The notes: a model not told the origin generated them from the letters alone. DNA of 64,000 nt from Candidatus Eiseniibacteriota bacterium (GCA_963762255.1 CAVXKA010000001.1:448001-512000); one strand, 5' to 3'. Shown: positions 14,882-43,524, counted from the stretch's first letter. Numbers and translations: made by a program.

Positions 14882-14956
14882 GGGGGACGAATCTCCGTGG
14901 TCGAGAAGGCCCTTATCGGACGGGGGGGGCTTTCTCGAGTGGGCACAAACGTTGCC
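14882..14956 (+). repeat. Left terminal inverted repeat (boxes A and B)
   Basis: Box A GGGGGACGAATCTCCGTGG 14882-14900; box B TCGAGTGGGCACAAACGTTGCC 14935-14956; extra partial copies at 15041-15097. Confidence 0.8.
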
Positions 14957-15178
14957 GGTGGGAGGTACGAGGCTGCACCCCAGTCCGGGTGCCCGTATAT
15001 GTGTTTGAAATCAATGGGTTTCGGGGATCGGCGTTTTGGCGAGAATCGTCCCCACGCAGCGATGGTGCCCACTCGAAGGGTGGTTTTCGAGTGGGCAGGA
15101 AACACGCGTTGCCCCCCCCCGGGGGAACACACCGCTACTGAGCCTCTCGGTCACGCCGCCGAGATGGACAGCAGTGCA

Positions 15179-16147
15179 CTAGAATGGCAAGTCGTCATCA
15201 TCCACCTCCGCCGGCAACTCCGTCAAAGAGACAAATTCATCCTTCCAGTCAGTCGCCTTCATGATCTTAAGGCTGCCATTCTCCCCGAACAGATCCGCGC
15301 GGACCTTTACCAGGTACTTTTCCTTCGGCCAGTCAGCCAAGTAGACACGATAATCAGGTTCCTTCCAATCGTCACGATCCACCACCTTGACCCGCCGTGC
15401 GTCAAGGAGGGCATCCATCTCGCCCACCGTCTCGAAGTAGACTCTATAGGGCACTTTCACAGTGCTCCTAATGGCTTCAAACACCGGATGGTTGCTCAGC
15501 AGAATGTCCCGGATGGTCGCATCACCTTCCTTTCTCTCTTTCGTCAGAAAGTCCACCAACTGATTCAACGTCCCAGCGGTTGCCTCGATCTTCTCAAGAA
15601 TCCGAACCTCCTTCTGACGTGCATGCTCCTGCAATAGCATCTGCAGCAACCCCGCCCATTGTTCTCGAAGGAAGAAGATGATGTCGCTCGTGACCTCAAA
15701 CGGCTGAATCGGGTTTCTGCCGGAGAGGGCAAAGAGCTCTTCTAGAAAGCCGTACACCCGAAGATCGTTCACCGCGCTGGGGGTGAACCCCTTGACGGTC
15801 TTATTGGCCAAATAGGTGCCATGCTCAGCATAGACCGCTCGCTCAACGAAAATGTAGATTTGCTTTCCCAGTTTCGCCGCCGTCCTGAGTTCATTCTGGG
15901 AGATAGAGTAGCGCGCGTCTCTGGAGTCGGTGCCGAACTTGCCCCCGACTATGTTGATCAAGATGTCGCAACTCGCAATCTCGCGGTAGCAGTCTTCCTC
16001 CAAACTTTCGGTGACTCCGTATGGAACCTGACCGCGTTCGAATAATACGGGGTCATAACCCTGCTCCCGGATGAAGCGCTCGAGATCCGCCCGTACGTTT
16101 CTTAGGTCATAGTATGTGGAGCTTATGAAGATCCGAGGACGAGCCAC
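15179..16147 (-). CDS. DUF4062 (TIR/NDT-like Rossmann) domain protein, putative defence effector
   Basis: GTG with GGGAGG RBS; RIFISSTYYDL, CYREIASCDIL, GGKFG, SISQNE. Confidence 0.85.
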   Translation of the reverse strand: MARPRIFISSTYYDLRNVRADLERFIREQGYDPVLFERGQVPYGVTESLEEDCYREIASCDILINIVGGKFGTDSRDARYSISQNELRTAAKLGKQIYIFVERAVYAEHGTYLANKTVKGFTPSAVNDLRVYGFLEELFALSGRNPIQPFEVTSDIIFFLREQWAGLLQMLLQEHARQKEVRILEKIEATAGTLNQLVDFLTKERKEGDATIRDILLSNHPVFEAIRSTVKVPYRVYFETVGEMDALLDARRVKVVDRDDWKEPDYRVYLADWPKEKYLVKVRADLFGENGSLKIMKATDWKDEFVSLTELPAEVDDDDLPF

Positions 16148-16488
16148 GGTTAACCTCCCTTTGCATCGGCCAGAGCACATTCCTCTGATGATTGGGGGCT
16201 GCCAGTGCATGGTCCCAGGGCGGGAACGCGATTCACCTTTCTTACAGTCGCTTGCCCGACTCTGGCATGACGGCTGCCCGCCCCCCGGCGCACTGTTGAC
16301 AGAGACAATCGCGCTCTAGACAGGAACGACACGCGCCTTGACCATGCGCTCGCCCAGATGTGCGTACAGATGGAACTCACTGCCACCTTGAATAGGAACC
16401 TCCACCCCGGCTTTGCTCGACGGCTGTTAGCAATGAGGATGTTGTCTGTGATGCATTGGAGGCGATCACCTCTTCATCTGGCGACTGT

Positions 16489-17778
16489 CTACTTGAGCAT
16501 CTTCACGAGGCCTTCCAAAGTCAATTCCCACCGATCAAGTACGCGGCGCCATGCAGCACCCCAGTCACTTACCGGGTAGGAGATCCCAAAGGCACGGCAT
16601 GCGTTGACGACCTTGGCGTTTTCGACATGGGCTGGATGGAGATTATTCCGCAAGTCCCGAATCATCCTCAATCCGGCAATCACCCTGCCTACGTCTTCGT
16701 TCTCTACATCCCTATCCGGTTTCAAGAGTATCTCCAGGGCATCAATGGACCTCGGCTGAGGCCCGGCGCCACCGTGACTCTTCTTGCCCGGTATGGCAAT
16801 CGCTTCAACGTAGGTCGCTAACGTCTGTATGCTGTGGGCAAACTCCATCTTGTTCGTCGGAACCCTGGCAAAGACCAGTGCCGCTTCGTGCGGGACACGG
16901 CCGAAGAGAGGGCTGCCGAACTTCTTCTCGAAGAGTCTATCCACTGAATCGAGAAGCTCCACAGAGCGAGTGCCGCTGGGGTTCCCATCCGGTAGCCTGC
17001 CCTCTAAGCTGGGCTCGTGCGAGACTCTTCGGGCAGGTGTTTCGGAGAACACGCCGGGAAACCTCAGGACAACTCTGTACCTATGGCCGCGAGTGGGCTC
17101 TGCCCTCTCCCATCGAACCCGGCGATCGGCCTCGATACTATCGACGGGGTCGCTCAGCTGCCGCCGCTGGGAAGAATACGGGTGAACCGTTTCTTCAAAG
17201 ACCATCACATCCGGGAAGGGTAAAGCGTCACCGATCACGATGTCGAATGACAGTCGCTCTGTGGCGACGTGCACGTCGTGATAGATATTGAGCTCCCAAC
17301 TGGCCTTCTCGCCAGTTGTGACGTATGCTGGGGACAATGACATATAGTCAGTGATTGTGGTTCGACGAAACAGCTCATTGCTGGTCAATTCGTGACTTGT
17401 CTGGCCGACCCTTAGGTGGTCAGCGAAGCGCGAAACGTGGAAATCGATCGACTCTTCCCTGCCTAGTCCAGCGAATGCACCTCGCGAGATTACCGTGTGC
17501 GCATCGTAGATCACGCGCTCATCCAGGATTTCGACTGCGACTGATGCGCTGCCTTGTGGCACGTCTGGCTGCACGGTCGTTGATCGACGTACTTCGGCCT
17601 TCGCGGTCCCGTGCAACTGGATCTCAAACCGATCACTGAGGAGAGTGCACCCAGGGCGAGTCTGCGAGCTTGTCCCTGATTCCGCTTGAGACCCAATGAA
17701 GATCTTCCGAATGAGCGTGGCGGCGGCTTGTCCCAGGGCCAGGAAGAAGCCCGCAGCGTCCCAGCTGATACCGCTCAC
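16489..17778 (-). CDS. Hypothetical protein: beta-sandwich domain plus C-terminal HEPN-like helical domain
   Basis: 429 aa ORF; GTGA overlap with the upstream ORF; LRMIRDLRNNLHPAH (R-x6-H). Confidence 0.65.
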   Translation of the reverse strand: MSGISWDAAGFFLALGQAAATLIRKIFIGSQAESGTSSQTRPGCTLLSDRFEIQLHGTAKAEVRRSTTVQPDVPQGSASVAVEILDERVIYDAHTVISRGAFAGLGREESIDFHVSRFADHLRVGQTSHELTSNELFRRTTITDYMSLSPAYVTTGEKASWELNIYHDVHVATERLSFDIVIGDALPFPDVMVFEETVHPYSSQRRQLSDPVDSIEADRRVRWERAEPTRGHRYRVVLRFPGVFSETPARRVSHEPSLEGRLPDGNPSGTRSVELLDSVDRLFEKKFGSPLFGRVPHEAALVFARVPTNKMEFAHSIQTLATYVEAIAIPGKKSHGGAGPQPRSIDALEILLKPDRDVENEDVGRVIAGLRMIRDLRNNLHPAHVENAKVVNACRAFGISYPVSDWGAAWRRVLDRWELTLEGLVKMLK

Positions 17779-18713
17779 GAGTGAGTGGCGGGAGACTGCT
17801 TCGTGATGCCCACCTCAGGTGCCCTCGCAATTACTTGGCGCTGCTCCGCTGCCCACGTCCAACGGAGAACGTAGAGGTTACCCACGACAGGCTTGTGAAT
17901 GCGCCATTCAATCTCCTCATAGAAGGGGCTGGTTGCGGCGCGAAGACCCGAAATGCTGCCATCCGCCGGCTGAAGCAGTACTGGTGGATCCCCGCTCCCG
18001 AATGTTGGCGGAGAAGGCAGGGGCTGAGGCTTGCCGTCTGGCTCCCGGATCTCGCCCCATGCACCGACGATTCGACATGCTGGTGAGACGACTCTAATGA
18101 TCTGCGTTTCGGTGGGTATGACTACGCGGACTCCGAGAAACTCCGAGATGTCGGGGAAGTAACCGGTGAAATCGGTGAGCACCCATACATCAACCACTTC
18201 CCCACGCTTCGGGGTATGCTTGAATACCGCGTCGATTATAACGCCGCCTTCCGGATGAGCGTGTTCGAAGACGTTTAGGTTTTCGCTCTTGTCGACGATT
18301 GTCGCGGAGGTGTCATGCAACACCTCCCCGTTGGGTGACTTTCGTGGGGTCGCCCCGCGGAAGCTGAACCCCTGCACATTGTCGGCGTTTATGCGACGGA
18401 CTTGGTGGCGTCGGTATGTGGCGCGGAAGCAACTGGAGTCTTCGAAGGAGAGGATGTTCTCTGCCTCCAAGATGGTGGTGGGCAGAATCGTTGAAAGCTC
18501 CCGAGCCCGCGCTCGCTCCCGAGCTAGGAAGCGGGTGACCAGGGGCAGGAAGATAATTAGGGCGGCTAGCTGCAGGGCTAAGCCAATCGCCCCCAGCAAG
18601 TCGAGTCGGAAGCGATGCGCCAGAAGCGAGTAGCTAAGTAGTAGAATCGCCGCCCATATGGCAAGGAGGATACGATCGGTACGGGTCGGCTGGGTACTTC
18701 TCTGCATCCCCAC
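17775..18713 (-). CDS. Hypothetical 2-TM protein with a beta-rich soluble domain
   Basis: RBS GGGAGG; two N-terminal hydrophobic helices; domain ends W..KP..G..YVLRWTW. Confidence 0.7.
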   Translation of the reverse strand: MGMQRSTQPTRTDRILLAIWAAILLLSYSLLAHRFRLDLLGAIGLALQLAALIIFLPLVTRFLARERARARELSTILPTTILEAENILSFEDSSCFRATYRRHQVRRINADNVQGFSFRGATPRKSPNGEVLHDTSATIVDKSENLNVFEHAHPEGGVIIDAVFKHTPKRGEVVDVWVLTDFTGYFPDISEFLGVRVVIPTETQIIRVVSPACRIVGAWGEIREPDGKPQPLPSPPTFGSGDPPVLLQPADGSISGLRAATSPFYEEIEWRIHKPVVGNLYVLRWTWAAEQRQVIARAPEVGITKQSPATHS

Positions 18714-19340
18714 CTCCCTGGCTCAGCGCCATGGCTCGCAGGTCGAGCTCACCCCTGTAGAGCAATTTCGTCCGACAGACCCGCGGGGAATTTCCCCCTC
18801 CGGCTACCAGCCGTTGTCAATCACGCCGTCGTTTCGGAATAGCATGGCTCCCCTTCTCAATCAGCAATGGTCTCTCGGTGCATAAGCAGGAAGGGCGCAG
18901 TACCCACCACCCATGCTGATAGTATTCTAACATAAACACGTGCGGCCTTTGTCGATCACCTTTCAGAGCGCTCAACTCCAGCCCGCAATTCACGCTTCAA
19001 GACGGCGGGTAGGATGCAACCCACTCGCGTGTTCGTCAAGCAAGAATGTAACGCAGAAGTCCTTCCTGACGCTTTAGGTATCGGAAGCGGACAGCCGGCT
19101 TGTTACCCCGTCGAAGCTGCGCACATTCCCAGCAATGGTCCAACAGCCGGTTCGTTGGAGCGGTCCAATGCGAACATCCTCCTGGCTATGAGCCACTGCG
19201 GCTAACTTCCAGTCGGGGCGGACAAGGCGCTACCGGTCCGCTGATCAATGACCATTTGTCGGCGGACCCAAGCCCGGATGGCAACTTCCCCTTGACCCCG
19301 TCGCGTCTCGGCTCCCCAATGGGGTCTGGAGGTTGACGTT

Positions 19341-19925
19341 ATGCCGTATTTGTCACCACCTACGCTCACTCGCTCCGAACAGGCCGCCCTGCTCCAAGCA
19401 AGCTCGGTTCACCCCCGCGATCACCTCGCCTTCTCCCTCGCCCTCGGCACCGGACTGAGGCTCGCGGAGATCGTCGGCCTCAACGTCGGCGATGTGTTCA
19501 GCGCCGACGGCAAGCCACGAAGCCGCATCCGTCTTCGCCGCGAGATCGCCAAGGGCGGCCGCGCCGGCGACGTGTTCCTGCCGGACGCGCTGGGGCCGAA
19601 GCTCGTGCGGTTCTGGGGGTACAAGGTGCGGTCGGGTGAATCCCTGTCGCCATCGTCACCCCTCCTCTGCAACCAGTCCGGTCTAAGGATTTCCAAACGC
19701 CGCGTCCAAATGACATTCAAGACCTGGCAGGTGCGCGCGGGGTTCGATCGGATCTATGGCTTCCATGCGATGAGACATTCGGCGATAACTTCTGTCTACC
19801 GCATGTCCCGCGATCTCTTCCTCGCGCAACGGTTCGCAAGGCACGCGAGCCCGATGACCACCACCGTCTACACCCACATCGGTGATGAAGAACTCATGCA
19901 GGGCATCCGAACTTTGAACTGCTAG
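19341..19925 (+). CDS. Short, catalytic-domain-only tyrosine recombinase
   Basis: GGAGG RBS; GTGLRLAEI (R), AKGG (K), FHAMRH (HxxR), ARHAS, TTVY (Y); 194 aa; no IntI patch. Confidence 0.9.
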   Translation: MPYLSPPTLTRSEQAALLQASSVHPRDHLAFSLALGTGLRLAEIVGLNVGDVFSADGKPRSRIRLRREIAKGGRAGDVFLPDALGPKLVRFWGYKVRSGESLSPSSPLLCNQSGLRISKRRVQMTFKTWQVRAGFDRIYGFHAMRHSAITSVYRMSRDLFLAQRFARHASPMTTTVYTHIGDEELMQGIRTLNC

Positions 19926-20383
19926 CCGCCCACGGCCAGTGGTAGAATTCATGGTCCTGAGTGGTGACGAGCTTCATTGCTGCCCACCGATTCCCCCAGG
20001 TTGGGGCATCACTCGGGAACGCCGGGCCTAGCTCACGCTGGGCCCGTTCGTTATGGCGGCCACCAGTTACATGTCCACTGGATGCCGAGGGATGCGTAGC
20101 GGCACTGCGCCAAGGTCCCTATGCTGGCGAGTGTGGTTGCGGGCAGCGATGCCTTCACAAACCGACTTGCCAGGCTCTCCGGAGGATTGACAGGTTCGCC
20201 TGCAGTCCAGATGCCCAGTCAGGGCCATGTCTGTACGTGGTACGCGTACGGCGGCAGCGGGAACCAACAACTCACTGCTATCGGATCAGACCAGTGGACG
20301 GCCACGTTCTGGGTTCTCGCCCCCCGTGCTGCCTGATAGGATGGCGTCCTTAGGTTCCGTGACTGGACTAGTTGGGGGTAACA

Positions 20384-23544: not shown

Positions 23545-23712
23545 CTATCGCTTCTCTTTTCTCTTGGACTTCTCTTCGGACCGTCCACTGATCGTCCAGA
23601 CTTTCTTGTCGACCGCCCGCTTCGCCCAGTCAGGTGCCCGGTCAGCAACCCGGTCAATACCATCCCAAAAGTCCTTGCTGTCCTGCCGTTGCGACTTCGT
23701 GTTCTGCTTCAT
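23545..23712 (-). CDS. 55-aa micro-ORF translationally coupled to the dCTP deaminase
   Basis: ATG overlaps the deaminase TGA (ATGA); MKQNTKSQRQDSKDFWDGIDRVADRAPDWAKRAVDKKVWTISGRSEEKSKRKEKR; below ORF-track cutoff. Confidence 0.5.
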   Translation of the reverse strand: MKQNTKSQRQDSKDFWDGIDRVADRAPDWAKRAVDKKVWTISGRSEEKSKRKEKR

Positions 23713-25199
23713 CGTGATTCAGCTCTCAATTTCCTAAGAATACGCGCAGCAGCAGTTTCACGTTCAGAATAGGCTGTTGCCGCCTCATGCATCCTTACCT
23801 GCCACTTACTCTTGACGAGTTTACCATCTCTAGCTTTGCGCTTCAACGGCCCATCTGGCCCAGTCTTCATGGAGAAGAGGGTTGCGTACCTGCTCGGTGC
23901 CACCCCGATGAAAGGTTCCAAGACCACAAGGGGCCTCTGATGGGCGTCTGCCACAGTAGGTCGTCCCTCCAATGTGACTGCATCCGCATGGAGCTCGGCT
24001 GCGAGGCTCTTTGGGTACGGCTCGATGTAGACGACGTGCTCGATCCCAGCAGCAACGATGTGCTTTGCACAGTTGTGACAAGGAAACGTCGTGCAGTAGA
24101 GAGACGTTCCTTTGACGGGTATTCCTACTCGACTGGCCGCCAGTACAGCCGCCACCTCAGCATGAACAGCCCGCCCGAATTCGGTCAGGCTGACCAGCCT
24201 ACTGCCGGACAGCGCCACTTCAAGCTCCGCGATGTTACCTGTTGGGCGCCTCTTCCGGTTTGATTTGGCACTCTTGGGCCATTTCTGATGTAGCTCGGCG
24301 AGAAGCCCAAGAATCTGGACTCTGTTCGAATCATGGCCCAGCTCAACATCTCGCTTCCGGTACTCGTCAGTACACCAGTACTGTCCCCCTCCGGCCTTGG
24401 GAACTTCATTGCAGCCGACACTTATGACATCGCCGTCTCCATTGAGAATCGCGGCCCCCACCTGTCGCGACAGGTCTGCGGATCGTAACCCTGCGGCTTG
24501 GGCCAAGAACATGCCGTACTCGTCGATGTTGGGAGATAGGACAGCCGCCCCGCCAAGCAGGGACATGAAGCGGTCTAGCGAGCTTTTCACAGATTCCACA
24601 TTGGCGCTGCTAACGAAAACATCGGAAAGATGAAAGGTGTCTCGTACTTGCTGCCCCCACTTAATATCCTCTGCCTGATCGCGCTTGATGAGTGTGTCTA
24701 CCTCTCCTCCCGATATGCCGGAACTGCCCAAGGCAGCGCGGCGCTCCTTCTCGCTCGCGTGCACGCCAATGAGCCAAAAAGAGTCTCCGTATATGTCCCG
24801 CAACGTCTGTACTTCCGCGTGGTGCTTCAGTTGCCGGACAATGTACGCCCGTTTGCGGCGCTTAAATGGATCAGCCGTCCTCGCGCGCTCAGCGATAACT
24901 CCAGCCGCGAGAAGGGCCAATACATCTTCGCGGCCGGTGATCTTGCGGAGTTCATTGCCTTGATCCATCAATCCCATGATTCTCTGATACTCCCGCGTCC
25001 CTTTGTGCTTTCTCTGTCTGGAGGGCCAGCGCGAGTGAGCCAGGGATTCACTCAATCGAATGTACTCAACTGGGTACTTCACGGTGCCCAGAAACGCAGC
25101 CAGGGCCTGCACCGCCAAGTCGACACGCGCCCCAACTGCGGATGTTAGACCAATGATCAGTTCCGGTTCCTTGGCATCCAGTGACGCGATTGTTCGCAT
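23709..25199 (-). CDS. Anti-phage dCTP deaminase (AvcD-like; P-loop kinase-like + deaminase)
   Basis: ELIIGL...G, RQLKH..EV..LR.IYG, SADLSRQVGA, EFGRAVHAE, TTFPCHNC, YIEPYPKS. Confidence 0.92.
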   Translation of the reverse strand: MRTIASLDAKEPELIIGLTSAVGARVDLAVQALAAFLGTVKYPVEYIRLSESLAHSRWPSRQRKHKGTREYQRIMGLMDQGNELRKITGREDVLALLAAGVIAERARTADPFKRRKRAYIVRQLKHHAEVQTLRDIYGDSFWLIGVHASEKERRAALGSSGISGGEVDTLIKRDQAEDIKWGQQVRDTFHLSDVFVSSANVESVKSSLDRFMSLLGGAAVLSPNIDEYGMFLAQAAGLRSADLSRQVGAAILNGDGDVISVGCNEVPKAGGGQYWCTDEYRKRDVELGHDSNRVQILGLLAELHQKWPKSAKSNRKRRPTGNIAELEVALSGSRLVSLTEFGRAVHAEVAAVLAASRVGIPVKGTSLYCTTFPCHNCAKHIVAAGIEHVVYIEPYPKSLAAELHADAVTLEGRPTVADAHQRPLVVLEPFIGVAPSRYATLFSMKTGPDGPLKRKARDGKLVKSKWQVRMHEAATAYSERETAAARILRKLRAESR

Positions 25200-27125: not shown

Positions 27126-27304
27126 ATTCATAGGATTGCGAGTAGTGCCCGTTCGTACCCCCGGGCCAGGATCGGATCCACAGCAATCGTACAGAGTGGT
27201 CGCCTCATCGGACTTTCTCTCAGGCCCCACTACGCCCGGCCTTGGGCGTCCCGTTCCACATTCCGCCGACTGCTTCTCCTCGGCGTCGGCGTGGAGGATT
27301 CCTG

Positions 27305-32426: not shown

Positions 32427-32970
32427 GGTCCGGGAGGAGGCACGCCGCCTCTACCTTGCCGGCGAAGCCTCTTCCAACGTGGAGATCGCCACCCGACTCA
32501 AGGTCAAGCCGCACACCGTGGCGCGCTGGCGGAAGGAAGAGGACTGGGATGGACTGCGGCTCAAGATCGACCGCCGGGCCGCGGAGATGTTCGTCGAGAA
32601 GATCGCCACCGACCGCGTCACCCTCAATGTCCGTCACTACCGCCTGTGGGATCTGTTGGTCACGAAGCTCATGGAGGACTTGAAAGGCCAACCGGGAACC
32701 GACATCCGGGAGTTGGACCGCATCGCCGGCATCCTGGAACGGGCACAGAAGGGACAACGCCTCGCGAAGGGTCTTACCACGACCGGCGAGTCCGAAGAGG
32801 AGATCCTGGCCAAGGCCGAGGCCCAGCAGCGTCACTTGATCGACGTGTTCATCGACAGTCCGGGACAACGTCTCGGACGAGGAGATCCGGGACCGCATCC
32901 AGCCGCTCCCTGGGCCATACCTGACGAGGCGGACGCTGGAGCTGGCGACCCCGGCGACCCGTGCCCTGAC
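32407..32970 (+). CDS. Putative terminase small subunit / HTH protein (3' end disturbed by indels near 32857-32910)
   Basis: GTG 32407; EARRLYLAG..SNVEIATRLKVKPHTVARW...DW HTH directly upstream of TerL; end coordinate approximate. Confidence 0.6.
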
Positions 32971-33016
32971 GGAGCCTCTGGCGACGTGGGCGGCGAAGAA
33001 GATCCGACTGGACGGG

Positions 33017-34489
33017 GTGCCGTTCCGGTTCGAGGGCCATGCATACCTCAAGGCGATCTACGACGACACCTCGCCGCACGTGGTGCTCTCCAAGGCGGCG
33101 CAGATCGGCGGCACGACCTGGGCCATCCTGCGTAGCTTTCATGCATGCATCCAGGGGTTGAACGTGGGGTACTACTTCCCCACCCAGACCGATGTCTACG
33201 ACTTCTCCCGGTCGCGGGTCGGACCGCTCTTGAAGGACAACCCGTTCCTCGCCGCCCGGCTCCAGGACACCGACACCGTGGGCTTGAAGCGGATCGGAGA
33301 GGCCAACCTCTACTTCCGAGGCATGAAGTCCACGGTCGGGATGAAGTCCGTCCCCTTGGACATGCTGGTCTTCGACGAGTTGGACGAGGCCACCCCGGAT
33401 GCGCGCGCGCTCGCGTGGGAGCGGATCGCGCACAGCGACTACAAGCGGGTCATTGAACTCTCGAACCCGTCGCTTCCGAATTACGGCATCGACGAGCAGT
33501 TCGAGAAGTCGGACCAGCGGCATTGGACCTTGAAGTGCCCGGCCTGCGGGGAGTGGACCTGTCTGGAGCGGGCGTTCCCGGCGAAGCTCGGTCAGGAGGT
33601 CACGGTGATCCGTCAGCGCGACGACGGCACCTACTATCGCGCCTGCCCCAAGTGCACCGCGGAGTTGGATCTCGATTTGGGTGAGTGGGTGGCGGACTAC
33701 CCGACTCGCTCCATCCACGGCTACCGCGTCTCGCAGCTGTTCTCCGTGAAGATGGACCCGGGCGAGATCTTGGACGAGTACCGGACCACCAAGTTCCCGG
33801 AACGGTTCTACAACTTGAAGATTGGCATCCCCTGGGCCGACCTCGAACGCCGCCTCGACGTGCAGACCGTGCTCGACCTCTGTCGCACCGGCGATGCCCC
33901 GTTCGGGTTCAACGTCATGGGCGTCGACACCGGCAAGGCTCTTCACGTGGTCATCCTGCGCACCAACGGGTACAGCGTGCGCCCGGCTCATCTCGTCCAC
34001 GTCCAGACCTGCCACGAGTTTGCCGAGTTGGACGCCCTCATGAAGCAGTACCGGGTGCGCGAATGCGTGATCGACGGGCTCCCCGAGACCCACGCCACCC
34101 GCGACTTCGCGCTGCGTCATCGAGGCTGGGTCTTCCTCAACTTCTTCAACGAGAGCCAGCGGGGCAGCGTCCGGTGGGATCGCCGGGAGTTGACCGTCAA
34201 CATCAACCGCACCGAAGCCCTGGACGCCTCGCGGGCCATCGTGCGGGACAAGAAGCTCACCCTCCCACCGAGGAGTCCCGAGATCGAGGAGTTCGCCCGC
34301 CACATGAGCTGCGACGCCAAGGTGTTGGACGAGGACCCCGAGACCGGAGCCAAGAAGTACCGCTACGTGCGGACCGGAGCCGACCACTACTCGCTCGCGT
34401 TCACCTATGGGCTGATGGCCCTCGACGGGATACACATGCCGGTGAGCCCGGAGCAGGCGCGAAGACTCGCGGGATTGTTCTACGGGTGA
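33017..34489 (+). CDS. Phage terminase large subunit (GpA-like)
   Basis: Walker A SKAAQIGGT, Walker B LVFDELDE, SNP, zinc ribbon CPAC/CPKC, nuclease MGVDTG..VIDGLPE..DHY; frame continues upstream (EPLATWAAKKIRLDG). Confidence 0.88.
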   Translation: MPFRFEGHAYLKAIYDDTSPHVVLSKAAQIGGTTWAILRSFHACIQGLNVGYYFPTQTDVYDFSRSRVGPLLKDNPFLAARLQDTDTVGLKRIGEANLYFRGMKSTVGMKSVPLDMLVFDELDEATPDARALAWERIAHSDYKRVIELSNPSLPNYGIDEQFEKSDQRHWTLKCPACGEWTCLERAFPAKLGQEVTVIRQRDDGTYYRACPKCTAELDLDLGEWVADYPTRSIHGYRVSQLFSVKMDPGEILDEYRTTKFPERFYNLKIGIPWADLERRLDVQTVLDLCRTGDAPFGFNVMGVDTGKALHVVILRTNGYSVRPAHLVHVQTCHEFAELDALMKQYRVRECVIDGLPETHATRDFALRHRGWVFLNFFNESQRGSVRWDRRELTVNINRTEALDASRAIVRDKKLTLPPRSPEIEEFARHMSCDAKVLDEDPETGAKKYRYVRTGADHYSLAFTYGLMALDGIHMPVSPEQARRLAGLFYG

Positions 34490-36603: not shown

Positions 36604-37032
36604 ATGGTTTCTGCTCATGATGTTGCCGCCTATATCCTAGAGCGACGCGGCCCCATGACCGCGATGAAGCTGCAGAAGCTGGTCTTCTATTGCCAAGCGT
36701 GGTCACTCGTTTGGGACGACGAACCGCTATTCGGCGAGAAGATAGAGGCTTGGGCAAATGGGCCAGTGGCCCGCGATCTCTACGAGGTCCACAGGGGACA
36801 ATTCAAGGTGTCGGAATGGCCATCCGGAGATCCGAATGCGCTCGACCTAACTCAGCGTGAAACAGTGGATGCTGTGCTTGGGTACTACGGCCACAAGACA
36901 TCGCAATGGTTGAGCGATCTCACGCACCGCGAACATCCGTGGCTGGATGCGCGTGCCGGCCTCCGGCAGGGAGAGCGGGGATCGAAAGAGATTACACCTG
37001 CCGCTATGGCCGAATACTACGGAAGTCTCTAG
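36604..37032 (+). CDS. Panacea (DUF4065/GepA/SocA-like) antitoxin
   Basis: MKLQKLVFY.QAW, PLF.EKIEAWANGPV..DLY, LSDLTHREHPW. Confidence 0.9.
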   Translation: MVSAHDVAAYILERRGPMTAMKLQKLVFYCQAWSLVWDDEPLFGEKIEAWANGPVARDLYEVHRGQFKVSEWPSGDPNALDLTQRETVDAVLGYYGHKTSQWLSDLTHREHPWLDARAGLRQGERGSKEITPAAMAEYYGSL

Positions 37033-37038
37033 AGGCGA

Positions 37039-37488
37039 ATGGCCAAGAACAGATCCAATCGTAAGGCCCCGAAGGCAGCGATTTTGCCCACTCCAGAGAA
37101 GTCACCCCATGCCACTGAGGGTATCGACTTCCTTGACTTGTGCCCGACATGGAAGGTCGGGACCCTCGAATTGCATGGCCAATTTGGTTGGACAGCCCTT
37201 GCCGCCCCTGCGGTGGCCGCAGTTCAATCGCGCTTGTCTGCCTTCGAAACAATGAATTGGAAGGATATTCTCTTCAAGGGAAAGAAGCAGAACCACCATG
37301 TTGGCGTCCATCGCATCTGCAATGATGCCCGGCGGCGTCTTGAGGAGCTCGGACTCTCCGACGTGGACAAGCTAGTTTCCCTGCGCGTGGGAGCGACGGA
37401 GCGCATTTGGGGGATTCTCGATCAGGGATGTCTAAAGATCTTGTGGTGGGATCCGACGCACGCCATATGCCCATCCTTGCCGAGGTAG
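37039..37488 (+). CDS. Putative cognate toxin (RelE-like mRNase) of the Panacea TA pair
   Basis: 6 bp after the antitoxin; LVSLRVGATERIWG...ILWWDPTH.ICPS. Confidence 0.65.
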   Translation: MAKNRSNRKAPKAAILPTPEKSPHATEGIDFLDLCPTWKVGTLELHGQFGWTALAAPAVAAVQSRLSAFETMNWKDILFKGKKQNHHVGVHRICNDARRRLEELGLSDVDKLVSLRVGATERIWGILDQGCLKILWWDPTHAICPSLPR

Positions 37489-38047: not shown

Positions 38048-38141
38048 ATCCAATTGTCCACCTCACCGACGACGACCGGCTATCTTTCAAAGACGCATCC
38101 TACTCCCCGGAGCGGGCGGGGACCGCAGCGGTTCGTTAGCG
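38048..38141 (-). repeat. attC site (long family)
   Basis: Minus strand CGCTAAC gaaccgctgc...gccggtcgtcg...ATTGGAT (degenerate R'). Confidence 0.65.
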
Positions 38142-38173
38142 GGCGGCAGACAGAGATAGCGTGGCCTATGACA

Positions 38174-38749
38174 CTAGCCACTTGCCAGTGCTCGGGCCGC
38201 CAGCTGCCGGTCTATCCTTCTGGCTAGCTTGCTCATCTCCTCCCTATACGCGGCCTCAGCGGCCTCGAAATTGACTCTGTCCAAGGACAGGGATTGGACG
38301 AAGGTGGGCCGAAGGCCTTCCTCGATCTTGCGCCTATAGCGCTCAAGTCGATCAAGCACATCGTATTCGTAGCGCGATTCGGGCCGCCCCCCGAGGTCAG
38401 TGGGGTTACCGGGGATTGCGACATCGCGTACAAGTTCATCCACCCGGTGAGCGATTAGGTTTCGAAAGTCCAGCAGCCCTTGGACCTCGCTGCTCTCCTC
38501 CCGGGTGAGGACACCTTCGTCCACCAGGACGGCAAAGGCCTTCTTGATCAGTTGCGTTGCCCTTTCAGGGAGACGCTCAGATGCGTCCTCACGGGGAAAT
38601 GTCCGATCGGTCGCGCGAATCGACTCAACGACATAGCGCTTGAGGCTCTCTGCCTGGAAGAGCACCACTACCATCTCAAGGGCGCGGAACTTCAGGATGT
38701 TCTTCTCGAGTGCAGGCACCTTCACGTCAATGTTCCATTCCGTGTCCAA
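38174..38749 (-). CDS. HEPN-like domain cassette protein
   Basis: Helical; LLDFRNLIAH (R-x4-H). Confidence 0.7.
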   Translation of the reverse strand: MDTEWNIDVKVPALEKNILKFRALEMVVVLFQAESLKRYVVESIRATDRTFPREDASERLPERATQLIKKAFAVLVDEGVLTREESSEVQGLLDFRNLIAHRVDELVRDVAIPGNPTDLGGRPESRYEYDVLDRLERYRRKIEEGLRPTFVQSLSLDRVNFEAAEAAYREEMSKLARRIDRQLAARALASG

Positions 38750-38774
38750 TCCGTGGGTGATCCGATTTCGGCCA

Positions 38775-38871
38775 TGCTAACGCTCAGGCTCAGCAGCAGG
38801 CCGAGTGTCATGGTGGGTGCTCCGCGCCCGCCGTGACACGACAGGCCCTCAGCTGCAGCCGGTTGTTAGGT
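38775..38871 (-). repeat. attC site
   Basis: Minus strand ACCTAAC aaccggctgcagctgag...gctgagcctgagc GTTAGCA; the upstream ORF's TAA lies inside R''. Confidence 0.85.
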
Positions 38872-39528
38872 CTTCCTCTTCCACTCACCCGCCAACTGCT
38901 GGAGAAAGTACGCCGCTTCTGCTGAAAGGTCCCACTGATCCTCGATGCCGACCAGGGCACCCGACAGCAGATCTAGCAAACCATCCATATGTCGTGCAAA
39001 CCCGACCACGTTGATTACGAAGTGCTTGGGCAAGGACGGGTTCATCCTGGTATCGACTGGATATCGAAACGTAAACGACAATGGATCCACTTCGTCAAGA
39101 GATCTAACGAGAGCTTCGAACTCTGCCCAGCTTGCGACACCCGAGACCTCACAGTCCCATTTCCAGTCCATTGCGCCAAACACAGTAGCCAGCACTGGAA
39201 GAAAGGGAACCAGCCTGTGCTTTCCAAACACCCTACTCAGGTCAGTCTGTTCGTCCGAGATCAAGCCAAGAAGCTGCTCGCCGCGGAACGCGATCGCTTT
39301 GAAGTAGAGCTCCATGGAGTGCCTGTACAAGAACAGAATCGGATAACCTTCGTAGTCTGCGTGACCGTGTGACTCGGCAAGCCGAGTGGCAAGGATCTTC
39401 CCCGCATCATGGTAGCCATGCGCAAATGCACCGAGCTGAACAGATGTAGTCCCCGAGAAATTGAAGACAACGTTTCCATGTTGATGGTCCGGGCCAAAGA
39501 CTGGGTGAATCTCTGAAGCGTGCGTCAC
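38866..39528 (-). CDS. HEPN-superfamily-like hypothetical cassette protein
   Basis: YPILFLYRHSMELYFK, KHRL, DPLSFTFRYP. Confidence 0.65.
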   Translation of the reverse strand: MTHASEIHPVFGPDHQHGNVVFNFSGTTSVQLGAFAHGYHDAGKILATRLAESHGHADYEGYPILFLYRHSMELYFKAIAFRGEQLLGLISDEQTDLSRVFGKHRLVPFLPVLATVFGAMDWKWDCEVSGVASWAEFEALVRSLDEVDPLSFTFRYPVDTRMNPSLPKHFVINVVGFARHMDGLLDLLSGALVGIEDQWDLSAEAAYFLQQLAGEWKRKT

Positions 39529-39541
39529 ATTGTGCTCCGAA

Positions 39542-39640
39542 ACTTAACCCCTCACCGCTCAACTGCACCCCGCGCGGCTACCTGCCTTTGCGTCTTTGCC
39601 TTCCCCCCGCGCGGGCGGCGGCTGCAGCGGGAGGTGAGAT
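39542..39640 (-). repeat. attC site with mutated R'' (ATCTCAC)
   Basis: Minus strand ATCTCAC ctcccgctgcagccg...gcagttgagcggtgaggg GTTAAGT. Confidence 0.75.
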
Positions 39641-40192
39641 TCCAAACCGCACCGGTGGTGTGTTCTCAGTTATCCACTGGTGCACCATGTCACACTTCGC
39701 GCGTATCCGTTGGAAGTTCCGCGGTTCTCTAATGTCTTCCAAGACTTGCCGGATATCCGGAAATCCTGCCGGCAGTGACCGCTCCGCCGGCGCAGCTTGG
39801 AGGTTTGGAAAACCCTTGTGGACGATGATATGCCGCGCGGTCAGAACAAACCGCAGTGCATCAAGGACATCCGTCGGCATGACTGAAGCAGCCCTCTCTT
39901 CCAACTTTGCGTACGGGAGGTCGAAGACCATCTGATCACTGAACGAGTCGTTTGCGAAGTACGAGAAGCGCAACCTCTGGGCGATGTATTCAGAGGACAT
40001 CAAGAGCCATGCCACGAACACACCAGCATCCGAAAGATGCCGATGGTTCTCCTTGGCCACCTGCTCTTCAAGCTGCTTGATCCAACAACCCCAGTGGTCG
40101 TCATTGCCCAGGGCTTTTGCCCCGTCCCACCGCGCAGCCTCCGGAGCTTGAATCTCCTCGATGTCTTCCTTTCGAGCCGACTCGCGATTCAT
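39578..40192 (-). CDS. HEPN-like cassette protein (reads through into attC)
   Basis: GGAGAGG RBS; LTARHIIVHKG (R-x4-H). Confidence 0.65.
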   Translation of the reverse strand: MNRESARKEDIEEIQAPEAARWDGAKALGNDDHWGCWIKQLEEQVAKENHRHLSDAGVFVAWLLMSSEYIAQRLRFSYFANDSFSDQMVFDLPYAKLEERAASVMPTDVLDALRFVLTARHIIVHKGFPNLQAAPAERSLPAGFPDIRQVLEDIREPRNFQRIRAKCDMVHQWITENTPPVRFGISPPAAAAARAGGRQRRKGR

Positions 40193-40210
40193 CGACCTCT
40201 CCACTTAGGA

Positions 40211-40275
40211 ATCTAACGTGCTGCCAGTCAGCCGTGCCCGCGACGACCGGCCTCCCGAGCATTCTACACCACTGA
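40211..40275 (-). repeat. Partial attC (long family, R' half)
   Basis: + strand ATCTAAC-GTGCTGCCAGTCAGCCGTGCCCGCGACGAC, near-identical to the copy at 42510. Confidence 0.6.
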
Positions 40276-40452
40276 CCATTGCCACCCGGTTTGGTGGCTC
40301 CAAGCAGACCATGTTCGCCAAGATGCACGAGTTCGACTTGGCGTTCATCGAGGTGCTGGTGGACCGGAGAACGGGCAGGACGTTGTGGAAGGCGACCCCA
40401 TAGCGGCACCGGCGGCCGAAGGCCAGCACTACGCCGGCGGTGACAGAGTCAG

Positions 40453-40869
40453 TCAGCTCGCCGACTCGGTCTCCAGGTCCCGTTTCAGAACGATCTGGAT
40501 AGTGATATCGAAATAGGTCAGGCAGTCGCGGTAGCGCCGCTGGCCCTTCGGGGAGCCTTCATAGCCCTCACAGTGTTCCAGGAACTTCTGCTCACGCTGA
40601 CCGTTCGTGATCATTCGGTGAACGAGCATGCCGATCTCAACACCCCCCCCATAGCATTGGGGATTCCTGCAATCAATCGCACCCCGGAAGTTCTTCTCCG
40701 TGAAATGTAGTTGGCGCCCGGTCGGTCGCCCAAGCACTGATTCAGAAACCTCAACGGACAGGTGGGCAATCGTGGGATAGGCCTCCGCGAATGTATTGGC
40801 GCGCGGGGCAAACGGACGATCCACATTGCGAAGCAGGTCCGTGAGCTTGTCTCTCCTCGAGGAACTCAT
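40453..40869 (-). CDS. Cys-containing (zinc-binding?) hypothetical cassette protein
   Basis: GAGG RBS; DCRNPQC, CEGYEG, RDC. Confidence 0.65.
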   Translation of the reverse strand: MSSSRRDKLTDLLRNVDRPFAPRANTFAEAYPTIAHLSVEVSESVLGRPTGRQLHFTEKNFRGAIDCRNPQCYGGGVEIGMLVHRMITNGQREQKFLEHCEGYEGSPKGQRRYRDCLTYFDITIQIVLKRDLETESAS

Positions 40870-41004
40870 TCATGTCCTCACTTCCACAGGTCCTGCACGT
40901 CTCTCCTCCCGCGCCAAAGACATTGGCACCGGATTGAAGCAGCATTCCGTGAGTGTGGCAAGTCTGTGGCCGCATCGGCGTCGCTCAGCAGGAGAAGCGG
41001 GGCC

Positions 41005-41100
41005 ACGCAGCCTCCCACCGGTCAGCCGCGCCCGCGACGACCGGCCACTGACCTGCATTCCGCTCCCCATGAGCGGGCGGGACTGAAGCGGTCGTTAGGC
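41005..41100 (-). repeat. attC site (long family)
   Basis: Minus strand GCCTAAC gaccgcttcag...gtcgtcgcgggcgcggctgaccgg...; R' degenerate. Confidence 0.7.
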
Positions 41101-41105
41101 AGATG

Positions 41106-41759
41106 CTAGCCAATGCGGCGGTACTCCCCTTCGAAAGACACGTTCATTCCGAAGTAGCCCACGATGTACTTCTCGGTAGCGATGAGTCGATCGCCATCGA
41201 ATTGGAGTTCCAGGCGGTACTCGTCACCACCCAGGCTCGCGTCCGAGAACACTGCACGGTCGTCACGCACTTCCGCCTCAAAATCCAATTCACCAAGGTT
41301 CGGCCCGTACTCGCGAGTCTTGCCCCACACTGCCATGCCAGTCACCCGCACATCCCCATTCAGGAGGGTGCTGACCTGAAGTTCTGCGCTCGAGAAATCG
41401 CCTTCACGAACGTAGTGCCCCGACGCATCACCCTTGCCGCGGATAGTAGCCTTGCCGATCGCGACCGGTTGATTCCATGCCCGTTCGATCACCTCGTGCA
41501 GGTCCCTGCGAAAACGCCTCGCCTCTTGTGGCGTCAGACCTTTGCTTTGACTTGTCCGACTGTCGTACTGATCGTGATGCTCGAAACACATGAACGCCAG
41601 GTTGTCCATGTCGTTGTTGTCGTTGCGGCCATCGAGGTGCGCGATCTGACCCGACTTGATGTCGAGATCGCGGTTGAGCCCGTAACATATGCAGCATCGT
41701 CGACGGCAGAGGACCAGAACGTTCTCCTCTGTGTCCGAAGGGATTCTCTTTCTAGCCAT
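41106..41759 (-). CDS. HNH endonuclease fused to a C-terminal beta-rich domain
   Basis: RRCCIC, QIAHLD, NN..DNL..MC..HHD. Confidence 0.8.
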   Translation of the reverse strand: MARKRIPSDTEENVLVLCRRRCCICYGLNRDLDIKSGQIAHLDGRNDNNDMDNLAFMCFEHHDQYDSRTSQSKGLTPQEARRFRRDLHEVIERAWNQPVAIGKATIRGKGDASGHYVREGDFSSAELQVSTLLNGDVRVTGMAVWGKTREYGPNLGELDFEAEVRDDRAVFSDASLGGDEYRLELQFDGDRLIATEKYIVGYFGMNVSFEGEYRRIG

Positions 41760-41775
41760 CTTAGGGACCCCGTCT

Positions 41776-41871
41776 GCCTTACATGTCGCCGCTCAACCGC
41801 AACGACCGATCGACCCTCAATGCTGGATTCTACTCCCCAGGAGTGGGGGCGGCTGAAGCGGACCGTCAGGC
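41776..41871 (-). repeat. attC site (long family, cores GCCTGAC/GTAAGGC)
   Basis: Imperfect palindrome with ccgcttcagccgc / gcggttgagcgg L boxes. Confidence 0.7.
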
Positions 41872-41881
41872 TATTGGATAC

Positions 41882-42136
41882 TCATGCAATCAGGTTCCGG
41901 ATGGCTTGGCGAGTTGGCTCGTCTCCAACGACTGTTGCCAACCGCCGCTCCAAAGCCTGGGCATACTCCGGTGCCGCGCGGCCTGAAGATACAATCAAGA
42001 GAGCCAACCGCAATTCGTCGATCAGCCTCCACTCCTCTGCCGTGATACCGGATGGGTCCTTGCGTCCGGCGACGGCAAAGCCATCGATGTCCCCGCCGAA
42101 CTTCCTGTAGGTGGCGACCTTTTCGGGTGTCAACAT
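41882..42136 (-). CDS. Small hypothetical cassette protein (84 aa)
   Basis: ATG 11 bp after the GTTAGGC core; MLTPEKVATYRKFGGDIDG. Confidence 0.6.
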   Translation of the reverse strand: MLTPEKVATYRKFGGDIDGFAVAGRKDPSGITAEEWRLIDELRLALLIVSSGRAAPEYAQALERRLATVVGDEPTRQAIRNLIA

Positions 42137-42147
42137 AGCGTGAAACA

Positions 42148-42209
42148 GCCTAACGCCTTGCCGATCAGCGGCCGGCCGCAGGCCGGGCCGCTGCATCGGC
42201 TTGTTGGGC
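42148..42209 (-). repeat. Canonical short attC site (62 bp)
   Basis: Minus strand GCCCAAC AAGCCGATGCAGCGGCCCGGCCTGCGGCCGGCCGCTGATCGGCAAGGC GTTAGGC. Confidence 0.92.
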
Positions 42210-42257
42210 GGCCTACGCGCAGTTTCTCAGAAGAAGGGGCCGCCCGCACTCTCTGGC

Positions 42258-42425
42258 TCAGTTATGGTCCGCCTTCGAATGCCCACAGAGCTTTTTCGTG
42301 GGCGGACGGATGTTGATGCACTTCTCGGGACTGCCGGAATCCGACCTCCAGCTCGGGCAGCTGCATTCCTTGCATCCGCCTGCAGCCTTGTCTTTCCCAG
42401 CGCCCTCTTTCTTGGTCTCGGACAT
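42258..42425 (-). CDS. 55-aa Cys/His-rich microprotein cassette
   Basis: RBS AGAAAGGAG; MSETKKEGAGKDKAAGGCKECSCPSWRSDSGSPEKCINIRPPTKKLCGHSKADHN; not in the ORF track. Confidence 0.7.
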   Translation of the reverse strand: MSETKKEGAGKDKAAGGCKECSCPSWRSDSGSPEKCINIRPPTKKLCGHSKADHN

Positions 42426-42509
42426 CGTGATCTCCTTTCTTACTGAATCGGGCGACTTGTGATCCGATCAGTGACAGCACGAGGCAAGTCTCCTCAAGGT
42501 CAGTAGCCC

Positions 42510-42610
42510 GCCCAACGTGCTGCCGGTCAGCCGCGCCCGCGACGACGGGCCCCCTTCAAAGCCCTATTCTACCCCCACGAGCAGGCGACGATCCTGGTGG
42601 CATCCTAGCC
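42510..42610 (-). repeat. attC site (long family)
   Basis: R' GTTGGGC is the exact complement of the next cassette's R'' GCCCAAC at 42209; its own R'' is degenerate. Confidence 0.65.
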
Positions 42611-43237
42611 TGTCTTCTGCGCGTAGAAGAACGCTACGTCCCGTGCAATCCGTTCAGACCGAGCGCATTTGGCCGAGCCGATTTCCAGCCCAAGTGCTTG
42701 CTCGAATTGCTTCTTCTTCGGCGCAATCCACGGCCGGCCATTCCGATTCGTCTGATGCTGATAGAGCACGAGAAGGTCGCGCGGAATCAGTGCCGCCCAG
42801 ATGGCCCAGACCTCCGATTCAAGAATGTGCTTCAGACTCGGAGACTCAGGAGCCAGGCCAGTATCGGGGTCAAGAAGGACAACCGTCGTACTCCCACTCT
42901 CACGGGCTTGGATGGCTTCTAGGACAGCCCGTTGGTAGGTTCCGCGATCCTCGAATGTCATATCAAGGACTCCGATTGAAAGTTGGGCGCGAATGAAGCT
43001 CGTGAGCCCTGAAGCGCGCCGGATGTCTCGGAAGTGCTGCAGAACAGCGTCGGGCATCTTCACGGATACATCACCGATACTGAGGGAGGGCCATTGTCCA
43101 GGGCCGAGGCCCTTCCATTCGGTTGGCCTATGGTAGGCAACGTGAAGGATGCGGGAGGCTTGGTGAAGCTGTGCAAGGTGAATGAGCACGCCCCATTTCA
43201 CGAGGTCCTTGTTGTCGCCATACCACTGATCTTGCAT
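42605..43237 (-). CDS. Hypothetical protein, possible SAM-dependent methyltransferase-like fold
   Basis: GGGAG RBS; QWYGDNKDLVKW, VLLDPDTGL, LVLYQH. Confidence 0.6.
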   Translation of the reverse strand: MQDQWYGDNKDLVKWGVLIHLAQLHQASRILHVAYHRPTEWKGLGPGQWPSLSIGDVSVKMPDAVLQHFRDIRRASGLTSFIRAQLSIGVLDMTFEDRGTYQRAVLEAIQARESGSTTVVLLDPDTGLAPESPSLKHILESEVWAIWAALIPRDLLVLYQHQTNRNGRPWIAPKKKQFEQALGLEIGSAKCARSERIARDVAFFYAQKTG

Positions 43238-43447
43238 GCTCCCACCGATGTCACCCCGGCTGAATTGGCCAGCGAGATCGCTCGCCCAGATGCCGTGCCC
43301 GCAGTATAGGCCTTCAGTACGGCTTCTGGCTTCCGGTCTTGCTACCTGCAGCCGGTGGACTCTGTCACAGTCCTGGGGCGCGGCGTTCAAGGCCCCGTCA
43401 GCTTGTGGACATTAGGCGACCGGTGCGATCTGCTTTCCTTGGGGAGG

Positions 43448-43524
43448 GGCAGCGTTTGTGCCCACTCGACTCGACTGGACATGAACCGTGTGTCTCCCGT
43501 GGGAGCCACGGAGATTCGTCTCCC
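43448..43524 (-). repeat. Right terminal inverted repeat (boxes B and A)
   Basis: 43448-43469 is the reverse complement of left box B (21/22); 43506-43524 of left box A (18/19); spacers 36 vs 34 bp. Confidence 0.8.

Follow-up and report, generated by a model that had tools for sequence, protein, structure and literature searches.

A 64,000-nucleotide (nt) stretch of the genome of a Candidatus Eiseniibacteriota bacterium (GCA_963762255.1, CAVXKA010000001.1:448001-512000), referred to here as the window, contains an island of inserted DNA that carries three recombinase genes recognised by Pfam: one for a short tyrosine recombinase, one for a second tyrosine recombinase and one for a large serine recombinase. 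The source genome is designated G000, and positions prefixed C1 or C2 belong to it; coordinates of all features are collected in Table 1. Two short sequences recur in inverted orientation near the two ends of the island. Box A (14882-14900 on the plus strand, 43506-43524 on the minus strand) is identical at 18 of 19 bases, and box B (14935-14956, plus; 43448-43469, minus) at 21 of 22. Both pairs are above chance, since neither box found two matches in any of 100 shuffles of the window. The spacers between the boxes are 34 and 36 nt long and unrelated to each other in sequence. With at most one mismatch allowed, box A is found genome-wide only at the two island ends, whereas a 12-nt core of box B has 31 matches in the genome, 20 of which fall inside recognisable repeat units, so that box B is a dispersed repeat. 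Further copies of this core lie at the left end, one inverted (15065-15076) and one direct (15087-15098), together with an integration host factor (IHF)-like site, AAATCAATGGGTTT. Guanine-plus-cytosine (GC) content between the boxes is 58-61%, apart from a core at 28-36 kb with ~65%, and rises to 64-70% in the flanks. No DDE transposase was found among 25 island open reading frames (ORFs) scanned with Pfam; these were picked by hand from the list of ORFs of at least 110 amino acids (aa), a set that covers no shorter ORFs. ARAGORN found no genes for transfer RNA (tRNA) or transfer-messenger RNA (tmRNA) in the window. A sequence-only reading had earlier interpreted the region as an element bounded by bipartite terminal inverted repeats (TIRs), and its description of the two box pairs, of the extra left-end copies with the IHF-like site, and of a lack of DDE transposase agrees with these results.

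The outer boxes turn out to be part of a conserved structure. A search of 60 related genomes with the left-end DNA gave short matches of 88-100% identity, confined to the first 35 nt of the query. In the relatives, box A, the 34-nt spacer, box B, GGTGGGAG, inverted box A (A') and a T-rich tail adjoin, and together form one hairpin of ~104 nt. The closing stem of this structured element has box A as its 5' strand and A' as its 3' strand. The fold obtained from six sequences consists of a 20-bp closing stem (P1), a 13-bp hairpin (P2) and a small third stem (P3), with compensatory changes at 19 of the 39 pairs. When two distant copies are added to the six, 95.5% of the cells of the alignment are paired and changes on both sides are seen at 28 of the 39 pairs, a number that none of 500 shuffles reaches; partners slid along the alignment pair in only 42-57%. 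Conserved U-G pairs agree with an RNA read from the plus strand, as does the sole mismatch between the two copies of box A, which is G-T and would become a G-U pair in RNA. In the window itself, 43506-43524 can pair with 14882-14900 through 18 Watson-Crick pairs and that one G-U pair. No part of the hairpin is better conserved than the left box B, which is also present in genomes that lack the island.

A covariance model (R1) built from the six hairpin sequences identified exactly one copy per genome in six of the seven other genomes of the family and in both genomes of the sister family. In 141 genomes from the other families of this class it found nothing. G005, the family member that gave no match, is an assembly of 440 contigs. 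The hairpin is contiguous in eight of the nine genomes with a match. G000 alone matches only through position 84, the match (14881-14985, 75.7 bits) ending after GGTGGGAG, while intact copies in the family score 111-119 bits. A conserved 28-mer matches only the six known relatives in a scan of the genomes, and an exact-pattern scan of metagenome contigs gave no match. Rfam gave none at E ≤ 1 in window 14500-15500, and on the six intact hairpin loci its only match was unrelated, lying elsewhere with E 0.98. Genes flanking the hairpin are not syntenic between genera, and a promoter and terminator scan gave nothing useful near it. On the strength of its covariation, the hairpin is a well-supported, order-specific candidate structured RNA without an Rfam family match, and it is presumably transcribed.

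The empty form of the site delimits the insertion. G001, a genome of the same genus, aligns to 14775-14964 at 84% identity and then runs into its own 3' strand of the hairpin. Contigs of four unrelated metagenome runs were compared with window 14600-15400. In three of the runs (X1, X5 and X6) a contig matches 14600-14964 with 18-23 differences and continues past 14964 as CCACGGAGGTTCGTCC...CACTT, the counterpart of the window from 43506 onward (the P1 3' strand); in the fourth, the contig likewise stops matching at 14964. Since the contigs run from 14964 straight into the 3' strand, they represent the empty site, and the inserted DNA is 14965-43505, 28,541 bp in length, with its left boundary exact at 14964/14965. 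A direct repeat, GTGGGAG, flanks the island, and besides it a degenerate direct repeat of ~35 nt can be aligned by eye at the two ends. A discrete insertion with empty sites in relatives and a direct repeat at its ends identifies the locus as an integrative island of the site-specific recombinase kind. Because box A, A' and the left box B are contiguous in the empty site, they are target sequence and not element sequence, and integration into the hairpin gene is highly probable. The sequence-only reading had thus correctly recognised a discrete inserted element, which is poorer in GC than its flanks, and empty sites exist in related genomes and in three metagenome runs. The limits of the element are not 14882-43524, however. 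The reading also erred in treating the boxes as terminal inverted repeats of the element, A and A' already being an inverted repeat in the empty site as the two strands of a hairpin stem. Of the findings that it named as refuting its view, both hold in part: box B is a dispersed repeat, and direct att repeats lie at the boundaries.

The DNA just inside the two boundaries belongs to a dispersed unit of ~200 bp. Copies of the left arm that are 79-86% identical occur at C1:604825, 631334 and 1412640 and at C2:1144606, 1145584 and 1427751. The right arm is 94% identical to C1:631265-631315 and 84% identical to C1:1412796-1412858. In blastn searches of G000 the left end recovered 10 further copies or part-copies and the right end two, and units matching the query are present in all seven genomes of the family and in none of 53 genomes outside it. 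Within any one locus all copies are in direct orientation. When aligned, the copies end sharply on the right at a C-run, and on the left they take two forms. The first consists of TCGAGTGGGCAC, 11 nt and GT, followed by the island's left arm; the second of a G-run, the inverted 12-mer, CTCGACTGGACAT, 16 nt and GT, followed by the same left arm. The layout of the first form is that of an attL site, and that of the second, in which the right arm is joined to the left arm, is that of an attP site or a tandem junction. Joined arms are found at C1:1412640-1412858, at C1:631265-631471 and on one 145-nt metagenome contig that is identical to the island's right arm at 29 of 30 bases; these joined copies may represent tandem junctions and not circles. 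Accordingly, the right box B is read as a recombinase half-site in the element's attachment arm, and the left box B as native hairpin sequence.

A blastn search with the complete island shows four other loci in G000 that share its order: left arm, short tyrosine recombinase, serine recombinase, and right arm or a 68-nt remnant. The short tyrosine recombinase at these loci is intact, frameshifted or fragmentary, and the serine recombinase is 74% identical at C1:623197 and reduced to fragments at C2:1155690. One of the loci, C1:602753-631315, is also about 28.5 kb in length. The sister loci belong to the same element family, partly decayed, with at least four further members in this genome. Two diverged 12-mer copies, at C1:1326755 and 1328307, precede a conserved stretch (...aaacctattgat...) that is similar to that of the unit but not the same, and these may constitute a second subfamily of the unit.

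Several other interpretations of the unit were tried and rejected. Folding it as an RNA gene, on either strand, gave almost no covariation (-0.12 and -0.04 kcal/mol). Models based on IS200/IS605, IS110 bridge-RNA and Tn7-like ends were set aside, there being no such transposase in the island or between other pairs of units. Single-stranded attC-like hairpins with a 5-nt bulge, built from two palindromic modules, fail by eye in that the outer 11-mers are non-complementary in most copies. Finally, the boundaries of cargo at C-runs and G-runs do not resemble serine-recombinase junctions, the cargo-side half-sites lacking the motif, again by eye.

When the two arms are joined they form an imperfect 56-bp palindrome with a central GT, GACTGGACAT-N16-GT-N16-CACCCCAGTC. 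Its halves agree at 6 of 10 positions in the distal motifs and at 9 of 16 in the proximal parts (counted by eye). The distance between the distal motif and the GT depends on the side. On the chromosomal side it is 11 nt in all 14 attL-type sites (five in G000 and nine in six relatives) and in all six intact hairpins of the family, a total of 20 out of 20; on the element side it is 16 nt in seven of seven sites. A diverged element in G003 uses a different motif, AAGTAGGTAC, and still obeys both the 11-versus-16 rule and the GT centre. The spacing was measured computationally at seven G000 sites and read by eye at the remainder. Rutherford et al. proposed that the sites of large serine recombinases are distinguished by the motif of the zinc-ribbon domain, which is 5 bp nearer the centre in attB than in attP (PMC3783163). 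In the left halves of the sites, the 11-versus-16 offset corresponds to this attB/attP geometry and, together with an intact enzyme gene, favours the serine recombinase at 34627 as the integrase.

The gene in question is intact, and its predicted product matches the integrases of SPbeta, TP901-1 and phiC31. In Pfam the Resolvase domain scores 86 bits and the zinc-ribbon domain 23.1 bits, just under its cut-off of 25.3; in a homologue from G006 that is 58% identical, the Recombinase domain exceeds its own cut-off. Homologues are also found in the sister loci of G000, G003 and G006. Judged from these sequence features, the serine recombinase is modestly favoured as the enzyme that catalysed the integration.

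The account that we consider probable is that the locus is a composite defence island integrated conservatively into the hairpin RNA gene, with the serine recombinase as the favoured enzyme. The target would be a single-copy 104-nt gene for a hairpin-shaped structured RNA, and the crossover would fall within GTGGGAG, between the conserved single-stranded GGUGGGAG and the 3' strand of the closing stem; a crossover at this position within the gene makes box A and A' the separated strands of that stem. The serine recombinase would join attP, formed by the joined arms (N16), with the chromosomal half-site (N11) at the central GT. For the short tyrosine recombinase this would leave the role of a conserved companion, which might work on an arm site composed of two 13-nt sequences 8 nt apart (the 13-8-13 site).

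A number of observations weigh against this account. The 3' strand of the hairpin, which would be the right half of attB, shows by eye no convincing distal motif at 11 nt. The conserved unit extends ~155 nt past the 56-bp palindrome and includes the IHF-like site and three unpartnered modules resembling half-sites; simple serine-integrase sites need no such extension, and the long unit resembles the attP of a tyrosine integrase. The 7-bp identity at the crossover likewise exceeds what a serine recombinase needs and is typical of the overlap region of a tyrosine recombinase. A distance of 7.2 kb separates the serine recombinase gene from the right junction, and in G004, where both the unit and the short tyrosine recombinase are present, the serine recombinase has no homologue at E ≤ 1e-20. 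Two sites in G006 were assigned to the element side partly from the spacing itself. In addition, the B-type half-sites at loci other than the hairpin are too similar for independent chromosomal targets; there is weak evidence (17.8 and 14.6 bits) that they are decayed copies of a hairpin paralogue.

A possible, though clearly less probable, alternative retains the same island and the same hairpin target but assigns the role of integrase to the short tyrosine recombinase of 194 aa. The unit would then be an attP with an IHF bend and accessory sites, and GTGGGAG the overlap. An identical core of 7 bp and an extended AT-rich arm that includes an IHF-like site are typical features of tyrosine-integrase systems. 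At all nine unit loci that hold the gene, whole or in part, it is found 0.2-7.7 kb downstream of the unit and co-oriented with it (five in G000, one in G004 and three in G006, representing three genera; closest 0.35 kb), and its catalytic residues (R40, K71, H142, R145, H168 and Y177) are invariant in 34 sequences. Both G004 and G009 possess this recombinase without a homologue of the island's serine recombinase. However, the protein consists of a Xer-like catalytic domain only, aligning to residues 106-284 of XerC and 135-307 of XerA, and thus does not have the core-binding and arm-binding parts used by known integrases. The protein belongs to a very large family, with 2498 members at E ≤ 1e-10, which is also present where there is no unit, and conversely G001, G005 and G007 have units with no close intact copy of the recombinase. 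The 5-bp offset between half-sites has no known meaning for tyrosine recombinases. Furthermore, an accessory role is suggested by other families of the phylum, in which the short tyrosine recombinase again neighbours a large serine recombinase. The earlier proposal that this enzyme mobilises the island therefore stands as far as its linkage to the unit goes, while as the acting enzyme it is less well supported than the serine recombinase.

The best 120 homologues of the short tyrosine recombinase are almost all exactly 194 aa long and 68-86% identical to it, and one of them is named as Verrucomicrobiae by its source. The recombinase is present in 22 of 206 genomes of the phylum, with up to eight copies in one. 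In five genomes of other families it is again near a large serine recombinase. Six of the eight copies in G013 lie within 1.9-5.7 kb of one, and in G058 a copy lies 11.6 kb from the only serine recombinase match of that genome; the corresponding distances are 12.6 kb in G052, 11.5 kb in G106 and 21.6 kb in G021. The pair is convergent in these genomes of other families, and not co-oriented. We conclude from this recurrent linkage that the short tyrosine recombinase is probably a conserved companion of serine-recombinase elements. Among the plasmids of PLSDB there is no close homologue, the best being 31% identical. The unit was not found on any of four metagenome contigs carrying the short tyrosine recombinase (0.1-2.3 kb upstream) and was not recognised beside the copies in G013, and the G013, G058 and G106 loci showed no conserved short inverted repeat next to the recombinase.

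Within G000 the short tyrosine recombinase gene is part of a larger module, with conserved stretches of 55 nt upstream and 140 nt downstream of it. The module has a sharp common 5' boundary at 19286 (TTCCCCTTGACC...), and its pieces have recurrent breakpoints: four fragments end at 19596-19602, while C-terminal fragments start at 19781-19830, with tandem arrays as the result. In G013 and G062, C-terminal fragments are also found downstream of intact short recombinase genes. The non-coding 140 nt 3' of the gene (19925-20063) are 84-87% identical at two other loci, show hairpin potential by eye and share an endpoint, after which the sequences diverge. A multi-copy element in G013 (eight loci, L080-L087) carries a 227-aa gene without a family match, the short tyrosine recombinase, a haemolysin-III-family gene and a convergent serine recombinase of 561 aa; on the left the element has a sharp edge, located ~1 kb upstream of the tyrosine recombinase.

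A more doubtful extension of the preferred account would make these loci an undescribed family with two recombinases, in which the serine recombinase integrates the platform through the ~200-bp unit, the 194-aa tyrosine recombinase captures or exchanges cargo circles at the lox-like 13-8-13 site in the manner of an integron, and the hairpin is a new housekeeping small RNA. The 13-8-13 arrangement in the unit consists of GTGCCCACTCGAA, 8 nt and TTCGAGTGGGCAG. On one metagenome contig and at other loci, this part stands in direct copies on either side of cargo segments, which is the trace expected of a simple tyrosine recombinase that captures circles. This remains an incomplete lead, weakened by the counterpart of the module at the right end, which lacks the 8-nt spacer.

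It is very unlikely that the second tyrosine recombinase integrated the island, or its 26-36 kb core with the rest accreted later. The neighbours of this gene, a DUF3987 primase-like gene and terminase genes, do recall phage satellites, and the module that they form with it exceeds the rest of the island in GC and recurs at C1:1394083-1399462. Against this, the gene is 11 kb and 16 kb from the two junctions, has no nucleotide-level counterpart in the sister loci that share the unit, and gives a Pfam match that ends early, at position 155 of the 172 in the profile; blastn with the island ends found no att-like repeats flanking 26-36 kb. Weakest of all, and scarcely tenable, is the original model of a new class of mobile or invertible element with its own bipartite terminal inverted repeats: the inverted boxes are statistically real, box B-like modules do lie inverted at both ends of the element and a DDE transposase was not found, but box A and A' are adjacent in one hairpin in the empty sites of eight genomes and three metagenome strains, the left box B is also target sequence that is kept where the island is absent, and both the island ends and the unit copies within a locus are in direct repetition. 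Nor was an inverted form of the island seen, although reads from the source sample were not at hand.

Comparison with known systems places the island in a familiar class. As in the elements of the Listeria A118/LI integrase, SPbeta, phiC31, TP901-1 and the Ccr recombinases of SCCmec, a multi-domain serine recombinase is encoded inside the element. Further features shared with large-serine-recombinase elements are an attP that is an imperfect palindrome with a non-palindromic central dinucleotide, insertion inside a gene and, in the left half-site, the geometry described for such sites (PMC3783163), with the distal motif of attB 5 bp nearer the centre. Unlike those elements, the island has a unit of ~200 bp with orphan half-sites and an IHF-like site, its attB has a poor right half, its predicted target is a small structured RNA gene instead of a protein gene, and a short tyrosine recombinase accompanies it. 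The resemblance to tRNA and tmRNA islands lies in the insertion into the 3' part of a small conserved structured RNA gene with flanking direct repeats, in the tandem or decayed arrays, in the defence cargo and in a GC content unlike that of the flanks. However, the target is neither a tRNA nor a tmRNA (ARAGORN) nor an Rfam match, and the 3' end of the gene is not restored, so that the closing stem is lost; the block of identity lies 5' of the crossover.

The right third of the island contains small ORFs between attC-like repeats, as in integrons, and at other loci a short imperfect palindrome stands in direct copies on both sides of the cargo. The island ends are neither attC nor attI, though, and against the integron-integrase model TIGR02249 the short tyrosine recombinase scores 47 bits, where the cut-off is 265, and the second tyrosine recombinase gives no match. 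Inverted blocks near both ends and the presence of several recombinases recall transposons with terminal inverted repeats and the recombinase-in-trio (RIT) elements. Here, however, the inverted blocks belong to the target or are half-sites inside the element, no DDE transposase was found among the ORFs scanned, a direct att core flanks the island, and there is no adjacent trio of tyrosine recombinases, the two tyrosine recombinases being 6 kb apart and the third recombinase a serine one. The island is not a TIR transposon, an integron platform or a RIT element; it is an integrative island and in part a serine-integrase att system.

The kind of island is therefore familiar, with an unusual target and attachment region. 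What seems new is the target, a predicted structured RNA without an Rfam match, and the architecture, in which a long unit of many modules goes together with a serine recombinase and a tyrosine recombinase of minimal size. What had looked like a new class of transposon is removed, and the case illustrates that targets with a split stem can mimic terminal inverted repeats. It also indicates that a lineage-specific candidate structured RNA outside the known Rfam families serves as an integration site. The attB/attP pair proposed here for a natural serine integrase was derived from DNA sequence alone and might provide a tool for genome engineering. Finally, the minimal tyrosine recombinases form a large and highly conserved family that is repeatedly linked to serine recombinases.

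Table 1. Features of the island, its target and related copies (window coordinates unless prefixed C1, C2 or L)
Feature	Position	Strand	Basis or remark
Split RNA-like gene, 5' 84 nt (attB left part)	14881-14964	+	R1 match, contiguous relatives, covariation
P1 5' strand (box A); P2 hairpin	14882-14900; 14901-14934	+	Hairpin fold
P3 and conserved single strand	box B 14935-14956, then GGTGGGAG to 14964	+	Hairpin fold
Direct repeat GTGGGAG, left copy (att core)	14958-14964	+	Proposed central GT at 14958-14959
Left arm of element, part of dispersed unit	14965-15120	+	Repeat copies
Left arm: P' half-site	to 14985
Left arm: AT-rich conserved centre with IHF-like site	15008-15021 (IHF-like site)
Left arm: 13-8-13 inverted pair	15065-15098
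Left arm: P-type orphan half-site	15087-15114
Left arm: C-run	to 15120
DUF4062 protein	15179-16210	-	Pfam, E 5e-17
Two genes without family match	16489-17778, 17775-18713	-	No Pfam match
Short tyrosine recombinase module	19286-20063	+	Gene 19341-19925, 194 aa; Pfam PF00589
Methyltransferase-like protein, 1017 aa	20372-23425	+	PADLOC MTase_II
Anti-phage dCTP deaminase	23709-25199	-	PADLOC dCTPase; NCBIfam NF041025, 440 bits against cut-off 400 (equivalog)
Second tyrosine recombinase	26145-27125	+	Pfam
D12 methylase-like ORF, small-terminase-like ORF	within 26145-34489	+	Pfam
DUF3987 protein	27242-28855	+	Pfam
GpA-type large terminase	33017-34489	+	Pfam
Large serine recombinase, 523 aa	34627-36198	+	Pfam; favoured integrase
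SocA/Panacea antitoxin-like gene and adjoining small ORF	36604-37488	+	Pfam PF13274, E 1e-17
Small ORFs between integron attC-like ~85-nt repeats	38056-42590	.	blastn
attC-like repeats	38056-38145, 40209-40256, 41018-41098, 41773-41870, 42504-42590
Right arm of element	43441-43498	+	G-run; orphan B-type half-site including inverted box B 43448-43469
P-type half-site with 5-nt insert	43470-43498	+	In right arm
Direct repeat GTGGGAG, right copy	43499-43505	+	Read from sequence
P1 3' strand (inverted box A 43506-43524), then T-rich tail (attB right part)	43506-43530	+	Pairing, empty site
Intact hairpin copies	L047-L052, L054, L055, about 1501-1606
Short recombinase module copies or pieces, G000	C1:607898, 611220, 612580, 1408204, 1410217, 1411371
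Short recombinase module copies or pieces, G000	C2:1146778, 1148428, 1150005, 1151394, 1428117

The cargo of the island is mixed, and the defence genes that the sequence-only reading had expected are indeed carried (NCBIfam, PADLOC). The cluster of three genes at 15179-18713 has no PADLOC or NCBIfam match. There are two methyltransferase-like genes in the island, the second falling in a phage- or satellite-like module at 26145-34489. Part of this module, window 29233-34489, which includes the methylase, a ParB-like ORF and the small and large terminases, is 80-85% identical to C1:1394083-1399462, another island-like locus on the same contig. The attC-like repeats in the right third match an array of 17 copies at C1:1,538,897-1,556,027 (blastn), and their alignment shows, by eye, RYYYAAC-like and GTTRRRY-like boxes. 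Beside the 17-copy array, at C1:1537940-1538116, there is an IntI-like fragment with the best score in the genome, 107 bits against a cut-off of 265.

A dGTP triphosphohydrolase-like ORF, recognised by eye, lies directly beside another copy of the unit (L014 3580-4914, corresponding to C1:605079-606413 of G000, minus strand). This ORF suggests that unit-bearing loci also collect nucleotide-depletion defence genes.

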